A stretch of 40,622 nucleotides of DNA from positions 1 to 40,622 of the IMG/VR virus record IMGVR_UViG_2671180275_000009; one strand, given 5' to 3'. The DNA is from a virus (Duplodnaviria > Heunggongvirae > Uroviricota > Caudoviricetes). Position numbers and translations under genes: made by a program. The notes under the pieces were generated by a model, which saw only the letters and a list, made by a program, of their open reading frames with translations, made no database searches and had not been told where the DNA came from. Positions 10,366 to 40,622 of the stretch are shown here, one piece after another (position 1 is the first letter of the stretch; each line of letters starts with the position of its first letter).

Positions 10366-10653
10366 ATGGAAAAAGAAATCAAATTTGCGCCTAAAGATAT
10401 CGACGAAGAACTGGCTAAAATCGGCATGCTTGAGCGTATGCGGGACATTATCGAATATGCGATAAAAGAAAATCTTGCAGCCAGAGAAGCCCTTTTGATA
10501 ATGGAGCGGGAGATTAACCTGATTAAGGATGCTGTATCTCTGGATAATAAAATAGCCCGCGAGGAATACGTTCGCCGCAGGCTCGGTGTTGATGGTTCAG
10601 CAATTCTTACATCTGAACATTATGCAAAAATCTTTAATCTTTTTTCGCGGTAA
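10366..10653 (+). CDS. Hypothetical early protein
   Basis: ORF starting MEKEIKF with GAGGA RBS (track start 10351 is a GTG extension). Confidence 0.45.
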   Translation: MEKEIKFAPKDIDEELAKIGMLERMRDIIEYAIKENLAAREALLIMEREINLIKDAVSLDNKIAREEYVRRRLGVDGSAILTSEHYAKIFNLFSR

Positions 10654-10873
10654 TGCCCATGCAGGCCCGGAGATTGTCGAAATGCCAGTTTGTATTAATA
10701 TATGAGCCATCCTGGTGTCCCTCTGCGCTTTGGGGTGCGGCACTTTTTTGAGCAATATTGATAATATGTGTTGCCTCCTCACGGGAAATAACCCCCTTAT
10801 CGAACAGGGTTACCATAAGATTTCCAGCCATTGTGAATGCGGCAACATCAAGGGCATTTTTTATATCTGACAT
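10634..10873 (-). CDS. Hypothetical protein on the opposite strand within the early region
   Basis: 79-aa minus-strand ORF with AAGGA RBS 7 nt before its ATG; convergent with and overlapping the 3' end of the previous plus-strand ORF. Confidence 0.45.
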   Translation of the reverse strand: MSDIKNALDVAAFTMAGNLMVTLFDKGVISREEATHIINIAQKSAAPQSAEGHQDGSYINTNWHFDNLRACMGITAKKD

Positions 10874-11525: not shown

Positions 11526-11951
11526 ATGGCAGAAACTCAGATGAGCATGTTTGGTGGTGACAGTGAGCAACTGCACGCCCTTATCGACCGCCTTGATGAC
11601 ATCCCTGATGATGTTCTCAAAAAGAACTGGCCGCGGACCCTGTCAGAACTGGTTGAAGTCACCGGCGCAGAACTTCAGCGTCAGGGGATTGAGCCGGTAC
11701 TGGCCGGCAAACTGGCACGCAAGGTGGCTGCGGCTCAGGCAGCCTATATGGGCGGACGGGGTTATTACCTGCCGGTCGGGGAATCTCTCTTTGCCGAGCT
11801 GCGAAACAATGAGATATTTTCGCGCTGGGACCGGGGCGAGAAAATTGAATCCCTTCGCCGCCATTACCGGATGTCAGAAACCCAGATTTATACCGTCATA
11901 CGCGAACAGCGCCGTCTGCATCTGGCAAGAACGCAACCGCCACTTTTCTGA
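11526..11951 (+). CDS. Mor/C-family transcription activator
   Basis: 141-aa ORF between gemA and lys with C-terminal HTH-like segment (RRHYRMSETQIYTVIREQRR); cannot assign Mor versus C. Confidence 0.6.
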   Translation: MAETQMSMFGGDSEQLHALIDRLDDIPDDVLKKNWPRTLSELVEVTGAELQRQGIEPVLAGKLARKVAAAQAAYMGGRGYYLPVGESLFAELRNNEIFSRWDRGEKIESLRRHYRMSETQIYTVIREQRRLHLARTQPPLF

Positions 11952-34408: not shown

Positions 34409-34951
34409 TTATTCAGGCTTCTCCGGCCATTTAATGTCGTCAAATTCAGCTTTGTTTTTAATCGCTGGTAGTTCCATTTTTTTCACCTGACTGATGTATG
34501 CCATCCATCGGGTAAGTGCGGCTCTGTCTTCATCACTGATGGTGCCCAGCTGTAATTCTGTTCTCCAGTCATTAATTTTTTCATATGCCTGATTAAGATA
34601 TGACTGGCGCATTGCTTCCAGTTTTCTTGCGTAGTTAACCGGAATACGGGAGATCACGCCATTATCAAACTTCCAGTTACCCGAAATATCAGCACCTTCA
34701 GGGAGTTCGTCGACTTCAACCACAGAGAACCCCGCAGGATACAGCGCCGAAGCGTCCTGTGATATTGAGCAGATAATGCCGCTGTCAGGTGTTATACAAA
34801 GTTTATATTTTTTTGTGAATAATGGCAGGGACTCGTAGAAATCCTTACCATCTTCACTCTGAAAATACTGTACATCATTACCATAGAGGGTGTTTTCCGG
34901 GTAATATCGTTTAACATTAATCAGTTGCATAAACATCACCATGTGAATCAA
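34409..34951 (-). CDS. Tail fibre assembly protein (Tfa / Mu U family)
   Basis: 180-aa ORF ending ...FDDIKWPEKPE, typical C-terminus of phage tail fibre assembly chaperones. Confidence 0.75.
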   Translation of the reverse strand: MIHMVMFMQLINVKRYYPENTLYGNDVQYFQSEDGKDFYESLPLFTKKYKLCITPDSGIICSISQDASALYPAGFSVVEVDELPEGADISGNWKFDNGVISRIPVNYARKLEAMRQSYLNQAYEKINDWRTELQLGTISDEDRAALTRWMAYISQVKKMELPAIKNKAEFDDIKWPEKPE

Positions 34952-35050
34952 TGATAAAAACAGGAATAATACTATCGCTATATACGGACAGGGGTTGTCT
35001 GAGATAACGCATATATCAGGCGCTGCCTGCCGTACGCCATGAGCCGTTAA

Positions 35051-35422
35051 TTAAATACTTGCAGCGGATACCCAATTCCCATTAATACAATATTGTATCT
35101 GTCTGTAATAAACACGGTCATCACCACCACGCATTTCCCAGTCTCCGTCAGTCTTAAAACCGGTAATCACATTTCCTGATGACAGGGAGTAATTATATTC
35201 CAGTACGCCGCTTAATGCCTGCGCTCCCAGTCTTACCCCTGTAACATAACGCTGATTGGCCGTTGATTCCGGCATTCCTGACGTAATGTTTATATCCCGC
35301 GTCCCGTCGAAAGGAACACCATTAATATTTCTTGGGGTGGCGAGTCTGTTTGCTGCCACGGCGGTTCCCCCCGATGGCAGGGCATCAGCGGCCTTATTTA
35401 CCGTTTCCCGTAAACCGAGGTT
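35051..35422 (-). CDS. Alternative tail fibre C-terminal exon with no start of its own
   Basis: Reading frame opens immediately after a TGA inside the right gix-like site and encodes NLGLRETVNKAADALPSGGTAVAANRLATPRNINGVPFDGTRDINITSGM..., homologous to S residues from the crossover point. Confidence 0.65.
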   Translation of the reverse strand, partial: NLGLRETVNKAADALPSGGTAVAANRLATPRNINGVPFDGTRDINITSGMPESTANQRYVTGVRLGAQALSGVLEYNYSLSSGNVITGFKTDGDWEMRGGDDRVYYRQIQYCINGNWVSAASI

Positions 35423-35430
35423 TCAGGGAT
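35405..35430 (+). other. gix/hix-like 26-bp recombination site, right (inverted relative to left)
   Basis: TTCCCGTAAACC GA GGTTTCAGGGAT; its reverse complement shares the half-site GGTTTACGGGAA and centre TC with the left site. Confidence 0.6.
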
Positions 35431-35484
35431 GCCGTATATCTGCTTTAAAAAGCATTTCCACCTCTTTTTAAGGAAGGTAAATAC

Positions 35485-36045
35485 ATGCTGATTGGCTATA
35501 TACGCGTATCAACAAATGACCAGAACACAGGTTTACAAAGAAATGCGCTGGAATGTGCAGGATGTGAGCAGATTTTTGAAGACAAAATGAGTGGTAAAAC
35601 GACGCAGCGGCCGGGACTGAAGCGGGCACTGAAGAAACTAAAACCCGGCGACACACTGATGGTCTGGAAACTGGACAGGCTGGGGCGCAGTATGCGCCAC
35701 CTTGTTGCGCTGACAGATGAATTACAGCAACAGGGGATAAATTTTCGTAGTCTTACTGACAACATTGATACGTCAACCCCCATGGGGCGCTTCTTTTTTC
35801 ACATAATGGGTGCGCTGGCAGAAATGGAGCGTGAATTGATTGTCGAACGGACACGGGCTGGTCTTGCTGCTGCCCGTGAAAGGGGACGAACCGGCGGCAG
35901 ACCCCGTCGTCTCACGCAGGAACAATACGAGCAGGTCGGGCGTTTACTGGCCGGGGGTGTCAGCCGAAGACAGGTGGCACTTATTTTTGATATCGGCCTT
36001 TCAACCCTTTATCGTTATTATCCTGCGAGCGTTTCGGAAAAATAA
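35485..36045 (+). CDS. gin: Gin/Hin/Cin-family serine DNA invertase
   Basis: 186-aa ORF starting MLIGYIRVSTNDQNTGLQRNAL (catalytic Ser motif) with C-terminal HTH; adjacent to invertible segment. Confidence 0.85.
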   Translation: MLIGYIRVSTNDQNTGLQRNALECAGCEQIFEDKMSGKTTQRPGLKRALKKLKPGDTLMVWKLDRLGRSMRHLVALTDELQQQGINFRSLTDNIDTSTPMGRFFFHIMGALAEMERELIVERTRAGLAAARERGRTGGRPRRLTQEQYEQVGRLLAGGVSRRQVALIFDIGLSTLYRYYPASVSEK

Positions 36046-36144
36046 GACGCTCTCTTTGTTGGGCCTTTACTGAATTAACGCAAAATGGCGTTTATCGGTC
36101 TGTGGATATGATAATTCTGTTTATTCAGGAACAGGCTGATTATT

Positions 36145-38184
36145 ATGACGTCCAAATGGGTTCAACTATCATCAATGCCCGGAAACTTTACTGTTAAAGT
36201 TTCCGGTGGTACAGCGGCATTTCTTGAGGCTCCCTTTCCTCCGGCCGAAACAAAAGGAGGAATGACATTTGCTGACTGTCTCATCAGTTTTAATACACGG
36301 GATTGCCTGTGGGTAAGGCCAGTATCCGGTGATCCGAGCGTGGAAATTACCGGTGCGGGTATTGGTGCTGTCATTCCGTTAAGTGCTGATGTTGCCGGTA
36401 CTGCTGAACCGTCAGACTGGGATAATGCTGAAACACATACCCGTCCGTCAGGAAATGAAACTGCTTCCAGCTCCCCTTCCTGGTATTACGTGGTGGTTCT
36501 TGCTGGTCAGTCAAACGGGATGGCCTACGGTGAAGGTCTGCCGCTGCCGGAGACATATGACCGCCCCGAACCGCGTATTATGCAGTTAGCCCGTCGCAGT
36601 ACAGTCACGCCGGGAGGTAAAGCCTGTCAGTATAACGACATCATTCTGGCCGACCACTGTCTGCATGATGTGCAGGATATGAGTGGAAAAAATCACCCGA
36701 AAGCGGATGTGGCTAAAGGGCAATATGGCACCGTGGGTCAGGGGCTTCACATTGCCAAAAAACTGCTGCCGTTTATTCCGGCAGATGCGGGGATTCTGCT
36801 GGTTCCCTGCTGCCGTGGTGGTTCTGCATTCACGGCGGGTGCTGACGGCACGTACAGTGACAGCACGGGTGCTTCAGAGGACTCAGCCCGCTGGGGTGTG
36901 GATAAGCCGCTGTATAAGGACTTAATCAGCCGGACAAAAGCGGCACTGGCGAAGAACCCGAAAAACCGCCTGCTTGCTGTGGTGTGGATGCAGGGCGAGT
37001 TTGATATTGATGCGAAGCCGACGGAGCATTCCGCGCTGTTTCTGGCGATGGTGGAAAAATTCCGCGCAGACCTGGCTGAACAGGCGGAACAGTGTACCGG
37101 TGGCAGTGCTGCTGGCGTTCCGTGGATTTGTGGCGATACCACGTATTTCTGGAAACAGAAAAACGAACAGGCATACCAGGCAATCTATGACGGCTACAAA
37201 AATAAAACAGATAAAAACATTCATTTCGTCCCATTAATGACAGATGAAAATGGCGCGAATGTACCCACCAACAATCCGACAGAAGACCCGGATATTGAAT
37301 CCATTGGTTATTACGGCTCAACGTGGCGTAACAGTGCCGCCACCTGGACATCTGCGGGCCGGGCCAGCCATTTCAGTTCATGGGCACGTCGTGGGATTAT
37401 TTCCGACCGTCTGGCCACGGCTGTTCTGACTCATGCAGGGCGAACCACAGTAAAAGCCGATGTTCCATCTTCTGAAACTGAAGCACCAGTGCCGTCACCT
37501 TCAGAAACTGAAGCAGTAACCACAACACTGCTGTCTTACCGTGTCAGTGAGTCAGAAGGAAATCTGAAAGCCCAGGGCTGGGAGCCGGCTGGCGGTAAAG
37601 CTGAAATTATCAGTGATGCAGGAGGCACAGGTGGTAAGGCAATGAAACTGACCAAGGAAACAGGTAAATCATCCTGGTATCTGGATCATGATGCCGGTAC
37701 TGGTGCTGAACTGCTGAAAAATGGTGGTTTAATCAGTTGTCGTTTTAAAGTACCTGGCGACCTGGTGGCAAACCAGTATGTCATGGCGCTTTACTGGCCG
37801 GTTTCCTCTCTGCCGCAGGGTGTCACCCTGACAGGGGATGCAGGGAATAATCTGCTGGCATCGTTCTACATCCAGACAGACGCAAAAGACCTGAATGTGA
37901 TGCACCACAATGCAAAAGTGGCAACAAATAACCAGAAACTGGGAACCTTTGGTGTATTTGATAATGAATGGCATACGCTGGCCTTCCGTTTTGCAGGAAA
38001 TAACAGCCTTCAGGTTATTCCGGTTATTGATGGTCAGGATGGTGCCGCGTTTACCCTGACGCAGTCACCAGTAGGAACTTTCCCGGTGGACAAACTCCGC
38101 GTAACGGATATCACCAAAAATGCAACTTACCCGGTGCTGATTGACAGCATTGTGGTGGAAGTGAAAAAAGCGGTAACAGAATAA
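36145..38184 (+). CDS. Putative carbohydrate O-acetylesterase (SGNH/SASA family, NanS-like) with additional N- and C-terminal domains
   Basis: 679-aa ORF with YYVVVLAGQSNGMAYGEG (GQSN active-site motif of sialate O-acetylesterase-type hydrolases); GATAAT -10-like element upstream. Confidence 0.55.
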   Translation: MTSKWVQLSSMPGNFTVKVSGGTAAFLEAPFPPAETKGGMTFADCLISFNTRDCLWVRPVSGDPSVEITGAGIGAVIPLSADVAGTAEPSDWDNAETHTRPSGNETASSSPSWYYVVVLAGQSNGMAYGEGLPLPETYDRPEPRIMQLARRSTVTPGGKACQYNDIILADHCLHDVQDMSGKNHPKADVAKGQYGTVGQGLHIAKKLLPFIPADAGILLVPCCRGGSAFTAGADGTYSDSTGASEDSARWGVDKPLYKDLISRTKAALAKNPKNRLLAVVWMQGEFDIDAKPTEHSALFLAMVEKFRADLAEQAEQCTGGSAAGVPWICGDTTYFWKQKNEQAYQAIYDGYKNKTDKNIHFVPLMTDENGANVPTNNPTEDPDIESIGYYGSTWRNSAATWTSAGRASHFSSWARRGIISDRLATAVLTHAGRTTVKADVPSSETEAPVPSPSETEAVTTTLLSYRVSESEGNLKAQGWEPAGGKAEIISDAGGTGGKAMKLTKETGKSSWYLDHDAGTGAELLKNGGLISCRFKVPGDLVANQYVMALYWPVSSLPQGVTLTGDAGNNLLASFYIQTDAKDLNVMHHNAKVATNNQKLGTFGVFDNEWHTLAFRFAGNNSLQVIPVIDGQDGAAFTLTQSPVGTFPVDKLRVTDITKNATYPVLIDSIVVEVKKAVTE

Positions 38185-38797: not shown

Positions 38798-39229
38798 CAA
38801 TACCGACCTGCAGGTTTCCCTGCCGGGTGAATTTGTTAATGCACGTTTTGTGTATTTTCCCTCTGGGGAGAACAGGCAGGGCATATCAGCATCCTGAAAC
38901 AGGAAGCATTTTTTGGTTTGTATGTCTTGCCATTTTGAGATCGAGAACGGCGATAGATGAGCTGTAAGGGAGTCTTACAGGCAGGGTAAACAGGCTCTTT
39001 ATCCATGATAAAGATCTCCTTTTTATGCATCTCTGCTTTACAGGAGACCGGGGAATATCATAGGATACGCCACGAGCTCGAAGTAAAGCATTGATGCAAA
39101 ATTGTCTAAATCGGCCCAGAATAGTTCGCGCTATCTGGGTCGCCCTTTATGTATGTAGTATCCCATTGATTTGAAACATACTACATATACGCACAATCCT
39201 ACCTTCACTGTATAAAAAGTCAATAAAAT

Positions 39230-39368
39230 GATCATTTTATGATCGTTTTCACCACCTAACTCTTCGTTTTCTTTAAGTAAGTAATCACCGCCCTGAATCA
39301 TTGTTGATGACTTTTCAATCTATTTGTTGTATCAATTAAACAAACCGAATCGATCGTTTTTGTCGATC
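39230..39368. promoter_or_regulatory. GATC-rich region upstream of com (candidate Dam-methylation-sensitive regulatory region, by analogy with Mu mom)
   Basis: GATC at 39230, 39241, 39352 and 39365 within 140 bp of AT-rich intergenic DNA. Confidence 0.4.
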
Positions 39369-39415
39369 GATTGCATGAGAAAGGCATCAACAACAAAGCA
39401 GGAGGTTATGCGGCC

Positions 39416-39601
39416 ATGTATCGAAACATACGGTGCCGACACTGCAATAAGCTACTGGCACGGGCCAGTTTCAGTTATCTGGAAGTAAAATGTCCGCGCT
39501 GCAAAACCCTCAATCAAATCACATCTCAGAGCGCCACAGAGCACCCCACATACACAAGGAAATCCTGCCGTGGGGAACAAGAAACATTACTTTCAGTCTG
39601 A
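39416..39601 (+). CDS. com: Com-like zinc-finger translational activator
   Basis: MYRNIRCRHCNKLLARASFSYLEVKCPRCK closely resembles my recollection of Mu Com (IRCKNCNKLL...IEIRCPRCK); GGAGG RBS; 3' end overlaps the next gene. Confidence 0.8.
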   Translation: MYRNIRCRHCNKLLARASFSYLEVKCPRCKTLNQITSQSATEHPTYTRKSCRGEQETLLSV

Positions 39602-40622
39602 TAAGTCACTAACCTATGGTTCAGTATGCAGTGGTATTGAAGCTGCGACAGTAGCCTGGAGCAATCTTGGCTGGAAAGCCAGATGGTTCAGTGAAATAGA
39701 GGACTTCCCGTCAACACTTCTTTCATATCGCTGGCCCCATATACCAAATCTTGGTGATATGGCTTTGCTTGCGCCTCGTATCAGGGATGGGCTTATTGAA
39801 GCACCAGATATTCTTGTAGGTGGAACTCCGTGTCAGGCATTCAGTATGTCAGGCAAACGAAAAGGCCTTTCAGATCCACGGGGGCAGTTAACACTGTCTT
39901 TTGTTGAACTGGCGAATCAGATAGATACCGTTCGGGCATCGCTCAATAAATCCCCCTCAATAATCGTATGGGAAAACGTCACAGGAGTTTTAAGTAGCCA
40001 TGACAATGCATTCGGTCATTTTCTTGGTGCGCTGGCCGGAGCAGGTTGCGCATTACAGCCAGCAAGGAAAAGATGGGCAAACGCTGGTGTTGTGTCTGGA
40101 CCATCGCGTATCGTCGCCTGGCGAGTACTTGATGCCCAATATTTCGGAGTCGCCCAGGCTCGCAGAAGAGTGTTTGTTGTGGCAAGTGCTGGAAAAAGGC
40201 TCGATCCCGGAAAGGTATTATTTGAGTTCCCGCCTGTGTCGCAGGGCGATAAAAACTATTACGGAAAGAAGAAAAAATCCGAATCCCTTCTTGATCAAGG
40301 CATTGAAGGAAAATTGCACCGATATTGCCTTGAAGCATTGCCAAAACGAACAGGCACAGTAATAGCTGGCTATAACGGAACAACTAACCAGGACATGACT
40401 ATGTCTGGTGGGCTCATAGTTGAAAGAGCGCCATATTCAAGGGTTCGTAGGTTGACGCCAACCGAATGCGAGAGGCTACAAGGTTTTCCCGATGGATATA
40501 CAGATATTCCATGGAAAAATTCATCTCCAGCTCATCGTTATAAGGCCATTGGAAATTCAATGCCTGTACCGGTCATGAAATGGATTGGTCGAAGAATACA
40601 GGAAGCGTTAAACGAAGTTTAA
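39570..40622 (+). CDS. C5-cytosine DNA methyltransferase (GTG start overlapping com)
   Basis: Motifs GGTPCQAFS (catalytic PCQ), IVWENV, QARRRVF and IGNSMPVPV in canonical order; stop codon is the last triplet of the window. Confidence 0.85.
   Translation: MGNKKHYFQSDKSLTYGSVCSGIEAATVAWSNLGWKARWFSEIEDFPSTLLSYRWPHIPNLGDMALLAPRIRDGLIEAPDILVGGTPCQAFSMSGKRKGLSDPRGQLTLSFVELANQIDTVRASLNKSPSIIVWENVTGVLSSHDNAFGHFLGALAGAGCALQPARKRWANAGVVSGPSRIVAWRVLDAQYFGVAQARRRVFVVASAGKRLDPGKVLFEFPPVSQGDKNYYGKKKKSESLLDQGIEGKLHRYCLEALPKRTGTVIAGYNGTTNQDMTMSGGLIVERAPYSRVRRLTPTECERLQGFPDGYTDIPWKNSSPAHRYKAIGNSMPVPVMKWIGRRIQEALNEV

Follow-up and report, generated by a model that had tools for sequence, protein, structure and literature searches.

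According to PMC3378877 (citing Bolker & Kahmann 1989 and Hattman & Sun 1997), the DNA-modification gene mom of phage Mu is transcribed under the control of Dam and OxyR, and C, Com, Fis and the divergent overlapping promoter momP2 take part as well. Phage-borne modification functions with GATC pairs of 13-bp spacing in OxyR half-sites are also represented by gtr and opvAB, where the gene-proximal pair overlaps the promoter (−46/−33 in gtr) (PMC2909390, PMC4856963). In gtr of P22 the GATC pairs are located within OxyR half-sites at −110/−97 and −46/−33 and methylation abolishes OxyR binding (PMC2909390); together with a central half-site they give three half-sites (A, B and C, in 32-bp steps) that are bound alternatively in the ON and OFF states. 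The OxyR half-sites of opvAB are 32 bp apart (PMC4856963). The regulatory region of agn43 (flu) of E. coli K-12, whose OxyR/Dam operator is experimentally established, was taken as positive control in the present study. A com gene followed by a methyltransferase gene other than mom has already been documented for FluMu (hin1523), Pnme1 (nme1821), Hia5 and B3 (ORF48) (PMC3299994).

Here, the com region of a 40,622-bp stretch of DNA, referred to as the window, was compared with these systems. The initial annotation had described four GATC sites upstream of com as one cluster and had proposed methylation-sensitive control as in Mu. This cluster is best split into one real, conserved pair, which is predicted to be an operator, and another pair that is most likely incidental. 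The com-proximal element is a regulatory feature to be expected in a relative of Mu and no new kind of system.

The prophage and its com operon

The window is an Sp18-like Mu-family prophage of E. coli, a host that possesses both Dam and OxyR. Its right end is 99.9% identical to a prophage of E. coli DETEC-S792, and over positions 38800-39584 it shares 95-98% identity with prophages of 233 out of 5,426 complete genomes of E. coli, the majority of them with mom after com. Two Stx-phage records annotate the same DNA as 'inserted Bacteriophage Mu-like phage'. The Mu-family gene set of the window comprises a transposase-sized ORF with an adjacent B-sized ORF, GemA, a single Mor/C-family activator, a lysozyme and a Gin-like recombinase. 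The activator is the sole Mor/C-family protein found in the window and is 39% identical to C and 27% identical to Mor of Mu, whereas Mu carries mor and C as separate genes. A search of the window with an approximate left-end sequence of Mu gave no match, and the left boundary was only placed between 1603 and about 1890. The right end contains, in this order, a DUF6645/SASA tail protein, DUF1378, DUF826, a minus-strand hypothetical gene, com and a C5 DNA methyltransferase gene. The genes and signals needed for the following comparison are:

1-1602: host alpha-amylase-family gene, flanking the prophage
11526-11951: Mor/C-family activator of 141 aa, directly between gemA and the lysozyme gene
38836-39301, minus strand: divergent hypothetical gene, frameshifted here and intact with 154 aa in relatives (L003, O157-type)
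39416-39601, plus strand: com, encoding the zinc-ribbon translational activator Com (PF10122, E=5.8e-13; RefSeq annotation), with the Shine-Dalgarno sequence AGGAGG at 39400-39405
39544-39575, plus strand: predicted hairpin CCCCAC (39544-39549)/GTGGGG (39570-39575), burying the downstream GTG start
39570-40622, plus strand: C5 cytosine DNA methyltransferase gene (PF00145, E=1.6e-42) in the position of mom

Minus-strand ORFs precede the Gin-like serine recombinase (35485-36045) in an arrangement that resembles a G-type invertible segment (region 34409-38184). Downstream of gin, a 679-aa protein that contains SASA esterase and DUF6645 domains is encoded, an unusual gene in this place.

The N-terminus of Com reads MYRNIRCRHCNK, compared with MKSIRCKNCNK in Mu. 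The com and methyltransferase genes overlap by 32 nt, and the zinc-ribbon gene thus overlaps a modification gene whose start is buried by a predicted hairpin, as in a com-controlled DNA-modification operon. The same arrangement is found in Mu, where the GATC element is located upstream of com and com overlaps the DNA-modification gene with its GTG start in a hairpin. Based on the folds of both sequences, the CCCCAC/GTGGGG hairpin is the counterpart of the translation-inhibitory stem of Mu mom, and the GTG at 39570 is the mom start in relatives and corresponds to the mom start of Mu. The window is homologous to com-mom prophages as far as 39584, five codons past this GTG. In the window, mom is replaced by a C5 methyltransferase that is fused at the mom GTG start, downstream of the conserved predicted Com target and start-codon hairpin, in contrast to Mu with its payload Mom. 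The block GAGCACCCCACATACACAAGGA..GTGGGGAACA is conserved in front of three payloads, namely mom, C5 methyltransferase and DPPY methyltransferase genes. The payloads of FluMu, Pnme1, Hia5 and B3 are N6-adenine methyltransferases in other genera, whereas the window carries a C5 methyltransferase in an E. coli prophage.

The slot between DUF826 and com is a site of variable cargo, in which other, unrelated minus-strand genes are present in L005 and L006. In RefSeq, the minus-strand gene is tagged 'frameshifted' at a locus with 99.9% identity to that of the window. The intact 154-aa protein contains CxxC...CxxC motifs, and no Pfam family was found for the gene product.

GATC sites upstream of com and their conservation

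The four GATC sites upstream of com form two pairs, which differ in spacing and in surroundings:

39230-39244: distal GATC pair (39230-39233 and 39241-39244), 11-bp spacing, within AAAATGATCATTTTATGATCGTTTT
39348-39372: perfect palindrome AATCGATCG-N7-CGATCGATT, enclosing the proximal pair
39352-39368: proximal GATC pair (39352-39355 and 39365-39368), 13 bp from start to start, core of the conserved element

These positions agree exactly with those initially annotated (39230/39241 and 39352/39365), and the DNA is AT-rich as described (66% A+T over 39200-39400). In total, 138 GATC sites were counted in the 40,622 bp, which corresponds to one per 294 bp and is slightly fewer than in shuffled sequences (mean of 159). 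The density upstream of com is above this average, so that the initial proposal withstands this check: for the 139-bp stretch 0.47 sites are expected (0.40 by local composition) and four were observed, about nine times the element average, and the four-site cluster is the tightest in the window outside the host gene. Yet the excess is non-significant as a scan statistic. When 138 sites were placed randomly, a four-site cluster of at most 139 bp occurred in 71% of the trials and two close pairs inside 140 bp in 28%. GATC density by itself is weak evidence and no sign of function, and the local excess, although real, was not relied on as a functional test. The evidence that counts is comparative and concerns the proximal pair only. 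The densest GATC cluster in the window is located at 262-538 in the host alpha-amylase-family gene, with 10 sites in 277 bp (8 of them within 172 bp).

For the search for OxyR half-sites the consensus ATAGnTnnnAnCTAT with 10 specified positions was scored, as used in PMC2909390 and PMC4856963. No half-site with a score above 6/10 against this consensus overlaps the distal pair. This pair is located inside the minus-strand ORF and is kept only in relatives with the same minus-strand gene, one site being left in L005; the distal GATCs are missing in many relatives of group A, in L006, L008, L009 and L010, in all of groups B and C (groups listed below) and in Mu. Non-conserved, spaced by 11 bp, devoid of an OxyR half-site, inside a minus-strand pseudogene and 122 bp away from the proximal pair, the distal pair neither supports the reading of the four sites as one cluster nor provides a two-pair switch of the gtr type. 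It is probably not part of the com control element and most likely incidental.

The distal pair is located within a 14-bp palindrome, AAAATGATCATTTT, which is followed by ATGATCGTTTT (39196-39244). Directly downstream of the pair in the sense of the minus strand, a sigma-70-like match TTGACT-16-TAGGAT (39223-39196) is present inside the annotated ORF and might act as an internal promoter from which a shorter product is expressed. A function of the distal pair as the operator of this match was considered and is not proposed, given its location inside the annotated ORF, without an OxyR half-site and without conservation.

The proximal pair is located in the 115-bp gap between the start of the minus-strand gene (39301) and com. 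A scan of IMG/VR for the Com protein yielded 80 com loci, 74 of them enterobacterial. Both proximal GATCs are retained in 73 of the 74 enterobacterial loci, and one locus has lost a site. In every enterobacterial lineage (Com identity 65-100%) the pair is found at −64/−51 or −65/−52 from the com ATG with a spacing of exactly 13 bp, while its flanks have diverged beyond alignment. The following groups were distinguished:

Group A: Com identity 93-100%, AATCgatcGTTTTTGTCgatcGATT around the pair
Group B: Com identity of about 75%, AACgatcGTTTTTATCgatcGATA around the pair
Group B': Com identity of about 71-75%, GATCA variant and a third GATC
Group C: Com identity of about 65%, three GATCs at −82/−64/−51 with 18+13 spacing as in Mu

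Groups A and B carry mom or a C5 methyltransferase gene as payload, and group C (L043, L045) carries a DPPY-motif methyltransferase gene. After anchoring of 38 unique upstream sequences on the pair, with Mu and agn43 among them, the sole invariant block was GATCg.t.....cGATC-gaT. Changes occur directly adjacent to the GATCs (cAGATC in Mu, GATCa in group B', gatcT in L034 and gatcA in L069) and none inside them. Among distant Com homologues (at most 51% identity; loci L076-L086 sampled) the GATC pair is absent. In a census of CGATCG-N7-CGATCGAT in viral contigs, com was located just downstream at 15 of 119 sampled loci, among the matches listed, and the motif is therefore not exclusive to com. 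The same census in genome contigs was uninformative, since the matches listed came from unrelated GC-rich taxa.

This conservation bears on the view that the four GATCs are accidental in AT-rich intergenic DNA and that the proximal palindrome is a functionless remnant of the Mu mom region. The frequency of equally tight clusters in random placements, the plain lack of conservation of the distal pair and the missing Mu promoter core downstream of the proximal pair all agree with it. The proximal pair, however, is invariant where its flanks are unalignable, with a site lost in only 1 of 74 loci. An unselected remnant would have decayed like the flanks, so the invariance of the pair speaks against a relic, and we regard this view as unlikely.

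Predicted OxyR operator and the com promoter

The proximal pair of the window was aligned by MAFFT with GATC2 and GATC3 of Mu. The two regions are homologous: AATCGATCGgtaatacaGATCGATT of Mu aligns with AATCGATCGtttttgtCGATCGATT of the window with the same 13-bp spacing, and the palindrome and its counterpart in the mom region of Mu (...cGATCgaatcaattaaatcGATCggtaatacaGATCgattatgcccc...) share the form AATCGATCG-N7-(C/A)GATCGATT. In the agn43 operator, ATCgatcGTTTATATCgatcGAT, the GATCs are 13 bp apart as well, and in a longer stretch, AAAACgatcAATATCTATTTTATCgatcGTTTATATCgatcGATAAG, the spacing is 19+13. Comparison of the 23-mer ATCGATCGTTTTTGTCGATCGAT of the window with ATCGATCGTTTATATCGATCGAT of agn43 revealed matches at 20 of 23 positions. 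Differences were found in the number of sites, with three GATCs in Mu (18+13), in agn43 (the third GATC 19 bp upstream) and in group C compared with two in the element of the window, which counts against the likeness. Furthermore, agn43 is a chromosomal (cryptic-prophage) adhesin gene, unlike the window locus. The predicted half-sites and the candidate promoter of the window are:

39307-39335, plus strand: candidate sigma-70 promoter of com, with −35 ATGACT at 39307-39312, a 17-bp spacer and −10 TATCAA at 39330-39335
39322-39336: predicted OxyR half-site I, ATTTGTTGTATCAAT, score 7/10, 31 bp upstream of half-site II
39353-39367: predicted OxyR half-site II, ATCGTTTTTGTCGAT, score 7/10, overlapped by both proximal GATCs

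Only 0.17% of the window positions score at least 7/10. Scores of 7-8/10 were obtained for the equivalent of half-site II in all lineages as well as in Mu and agn43, and its form ATCG-N7-CGAT is shared with agn43, Mu and P22 gtr (for gtr, PMC2909390). The proximal GATCs thus lie within a predicted OxyR half-site, as in Dam/OxyR operators, and the distance between the two half-sites agrees with the spacing for a tetramer (about 22 bp, or about 32 bp from one centre to the other). A partner half-site of at least 7/10 at exactly 31 bp is present in the window, L006, L036, L040, L043 and L045, which cover groups A, B, B' and C, and also in Mu with its OxyR-like half-site 31 bp upstream; in L075 no partner of at least 7/10 is found at this distance. 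In agn43 the half-sites score 8/10 and 8/10 at 32 bp, compared with 7/10 and 7/10 at 31 bp in the window. Local shuffles yielded a partner of this kind at P=0.02-0.05 per lineage. The support from the partner half-site is weak for the window alone (P about 0.04) and stronger across lineages. Half-site I is degenerate, with ATTT where the consensus has ATAG, and this counts against the operator reading.

The distance from the last GATC to the com ATG is 47 bp in the window, as it is in groups A-C, compared with 74 bp in Mu, where the interval contains the C site, a weak promoter and a leader of about 22 nt. The distance to the Shine-Dalgarno sequence of the window is only 31 bp. Neither a TTAT-N6-ATAA dyad nor a T6 run nor a TAAGAT −10 was found downstream of the proximal pair in the window. 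Extrapolation of the Mu layout places +1 at about 39421, inside com, and a Pmom of the Mu type, with three GATCs of 18+13 spacing, a C-binding dyad, a weak promoter and about 74 bp, is therefore absent from the window. The analogy of position that had been drawn with Mu thus applies insofar as the element is located upstream of com and is homologous to that of Mu, and fails for the layout, which cannot fit into 47 bp instead of 74 bp. With only 47 bp from the last GATC to the ATG, the predicted operator would have to overlap the com promoter. In Mu, by comparison, the site is located at −53 to −87, upstream of the C-activated promoter.

A terminator-like hairpin (38892-38904) and the convergent minus-strand gene part com from the upstream late genes, and com therefore needs its own promoter within 39302-39415. 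By relaxed promoter scoring, ATGAC(T/A)-17-TATCAA is the best candidate of group A (ATGACA in L006 and L009), and the conservation within group A starts at its −35-like hexamer; a stricter promoter scan of the window did not list the candidate at 39307-39335. A better −10 (TATACT or TGtTATCAT) is located 7 nt past the second GATC in groups B and C. In group A the OxyR-like site would span −10 to about +25, as at agn43, with which the window would probably share an operator that overlaps the −10/+1 region of a sigma-70 promoter. In groups B and C the pair would fall in the −35/spacer region, as at gtr. The location of the best candidate upstream of the pair in group A and just downstream of it in groups B and C counts against the operator reading as far as the exact mode of interference is concerned. 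By relaxed scoring, all candidate promoters overlap or abut the proximal pair, and in both arrangements the operator would overlap the core promoter.

Two apparent links to the Mu promoter were rejected. A MAFFT match of the Mu promoter core to the Shine-Dalgarno/com start region of the window was judged spurious, the com N-termini being 26 bp out of register. In a search for a Mu-type C site with ATAACC, the sole good match (10787, TAAGAT 28 bp downstream) was rejected as a late promoter; it is located inside a minus-strand ORF (10634-10873), upstream of gemA and away from the late operon. By this motif search, no binding site for a C-like late activator was identified in the window, which is a point against the operator reading. 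In group C, TAACCACAC, a part of the C-site/−35 region of Mu Pmom, persists directly upstream of the com Shine-Dalgarno sequence (L045, 1950-2000), and the Mu promoter core appears to be deleted in these lineages.

The best explanation, which we consider probable on the grounds of sequence comparison, is that the proximal pair would form the methylatable core of an operator for OxyR, which is homologous to that of Mu and almost identical to that of agn43. The initially proposed Mu-like methylation-sensitive control is accordingly retained as a prediction for the proximal pair, for which the alignment with GATC2/GATC3 of Mu, the invariance and the OxyR half-site form argue, and is dropped for the distal pair. 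For the proximal pair, we infer OxyR binding, methylation sensitivity, the promoter position and the direction of the effect. With both GATCs unmethylated, or hemimethylated after replication, an OxyR tetramer would occupy 39322-39336 and 39353-39367. This occupancy would overlap the com promoter and prevent the com-methyltransferase operon from being transcribed. Once both GATCs are fully methylated by Dam, OxyR would be excluded and transcription allowed, and translation of the methyltransferase would additionally require Com to open the hairpin that hides the GTG. A literature search for methylome evidence at these sites in this prophage found nothing.

Alternatively, control could be sensitive to Dam and independent of OxyR. 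Methylation might alter the binding of RNA polymerase directly, similar to the IS10 transposase promoter, or SeqA on the hemimethylated pair might tie expression to the passage of the replication fork in replicative transposition. Strict conservation of the GATCs fits any Dam-based mechanism, all promoter candidates overlap or abut the pair, and the element belongs to a rapidly replicating transposable phage. However, conservation reaches the positions specified by OxyR, namely the flanking CG, the T at position 6 and the partner half-site at 31 bp, and 20 of 23 positions of the site agree with the agn43 operator, to which OxyR is known to bind. For the SeqA variant, the 13-bp GATC spacing is out of helical phase. 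We regard control independent of OxyR as improbable.

It was further considered that the palindrome is the operator of a dimeric phage regulator, either a C-like late activator or another phage protein, and that the GATCs in it are incidental. The perfect 9-bp inverted repeat with its 7-bp spacer has the appearance of such a site, and the activator of the window, being just 39% identical to Mu C, may differ in specificity. In Mu, moreover, the C site abuts GATC3. Oligonucleotides that bear on this adjacency are given in PMC4461284. On the other hand, CGATCG occurs only six times in the whole window and is absent upstream of the lysozyme gene, the expected target of a late activator, and the palindrome is therefore not a common site of the Mor/C-family activator. 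Phages that differ in payload and whose regulators have diverged have retained the site, and the near-identical chromosomal OxyR operator of agn43 involves no phage regulator. An operator of a phage regulator is thus quite improbable. A role of the inverted repeat as a nucleic-acid hairpin is hardly credible, be it a minus-strand intrinsic terminator (a terminator scan lists a minus-strand 9-bp stem with a 7-nt loop and the tail CGGTTTGTTT) or a 5'-UTR stem of the com mRNA (a transcription start near 39342 would put the stem in the leader). There is no minus-strand gene to the right for termination, and neither agn43 nor Mu has conserved the T-rich tail. The changes in the arms (cAGATC in Mu, GATCa in group B') are uncompensated with the GATCs intact, so that the palindrome is not maintained as a hairpin.

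Possible significance of the operator-com-hairpin cassette

If the predicted OxyR/Dam operator is confirmed, the Dam/OxyR checkpoint of Mu mom would not be peculiar to Mu. The operator, com and the start-codon hairpin would then constitute a conserved portable cassette, which in the enterobacterial Mu family precedes at least three unrelated DNA-modification enzymes, namely Mom, the C5 methyltransferase and the DPPY-type methyltransferase. In addition, more than 200 sequenced genomes of E. coli, those of O157, O111 and O145 strains among them, would carry a candidate undermethylated site in their com-proximal GATC pair. The points of interest are the predicted layout in which the operator would overlap the promoter and the portability of the cassette across modification enzymes.

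The layout also invites a more far-reaching scenario, which we consider improbable. The OxyR/Dam operator would be located over a constitutive sigma-70 promoter (ATGACT-17-TATCAA), in a manner similar to agn43, instead of preceding a late promoter that depends on an activator. Dam and OxyR would then compete after every round of replication, which would turn expression of the com-methyltransferase operon into a heritable ON/OFF switch in lysogens, and a phase-variable orphan C5 methyltransferase would generate subpopulations of E. coli with different cytosine methylomes.

GATC modules similar to that of agn43 were also observed away from com in other phage contigs of IMG/VR (L242, L245 and L306; also L255, L307 and L321). 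In enterobacterial phages, operators of the OxyR/Dam type may occur more widely than is known so far. One of these modules, gatcAATACATGTACTTCgatcGTTTAAACCgatcGATAGC, has a spacing of 19+13 and is located near a lambdoid-type gene.
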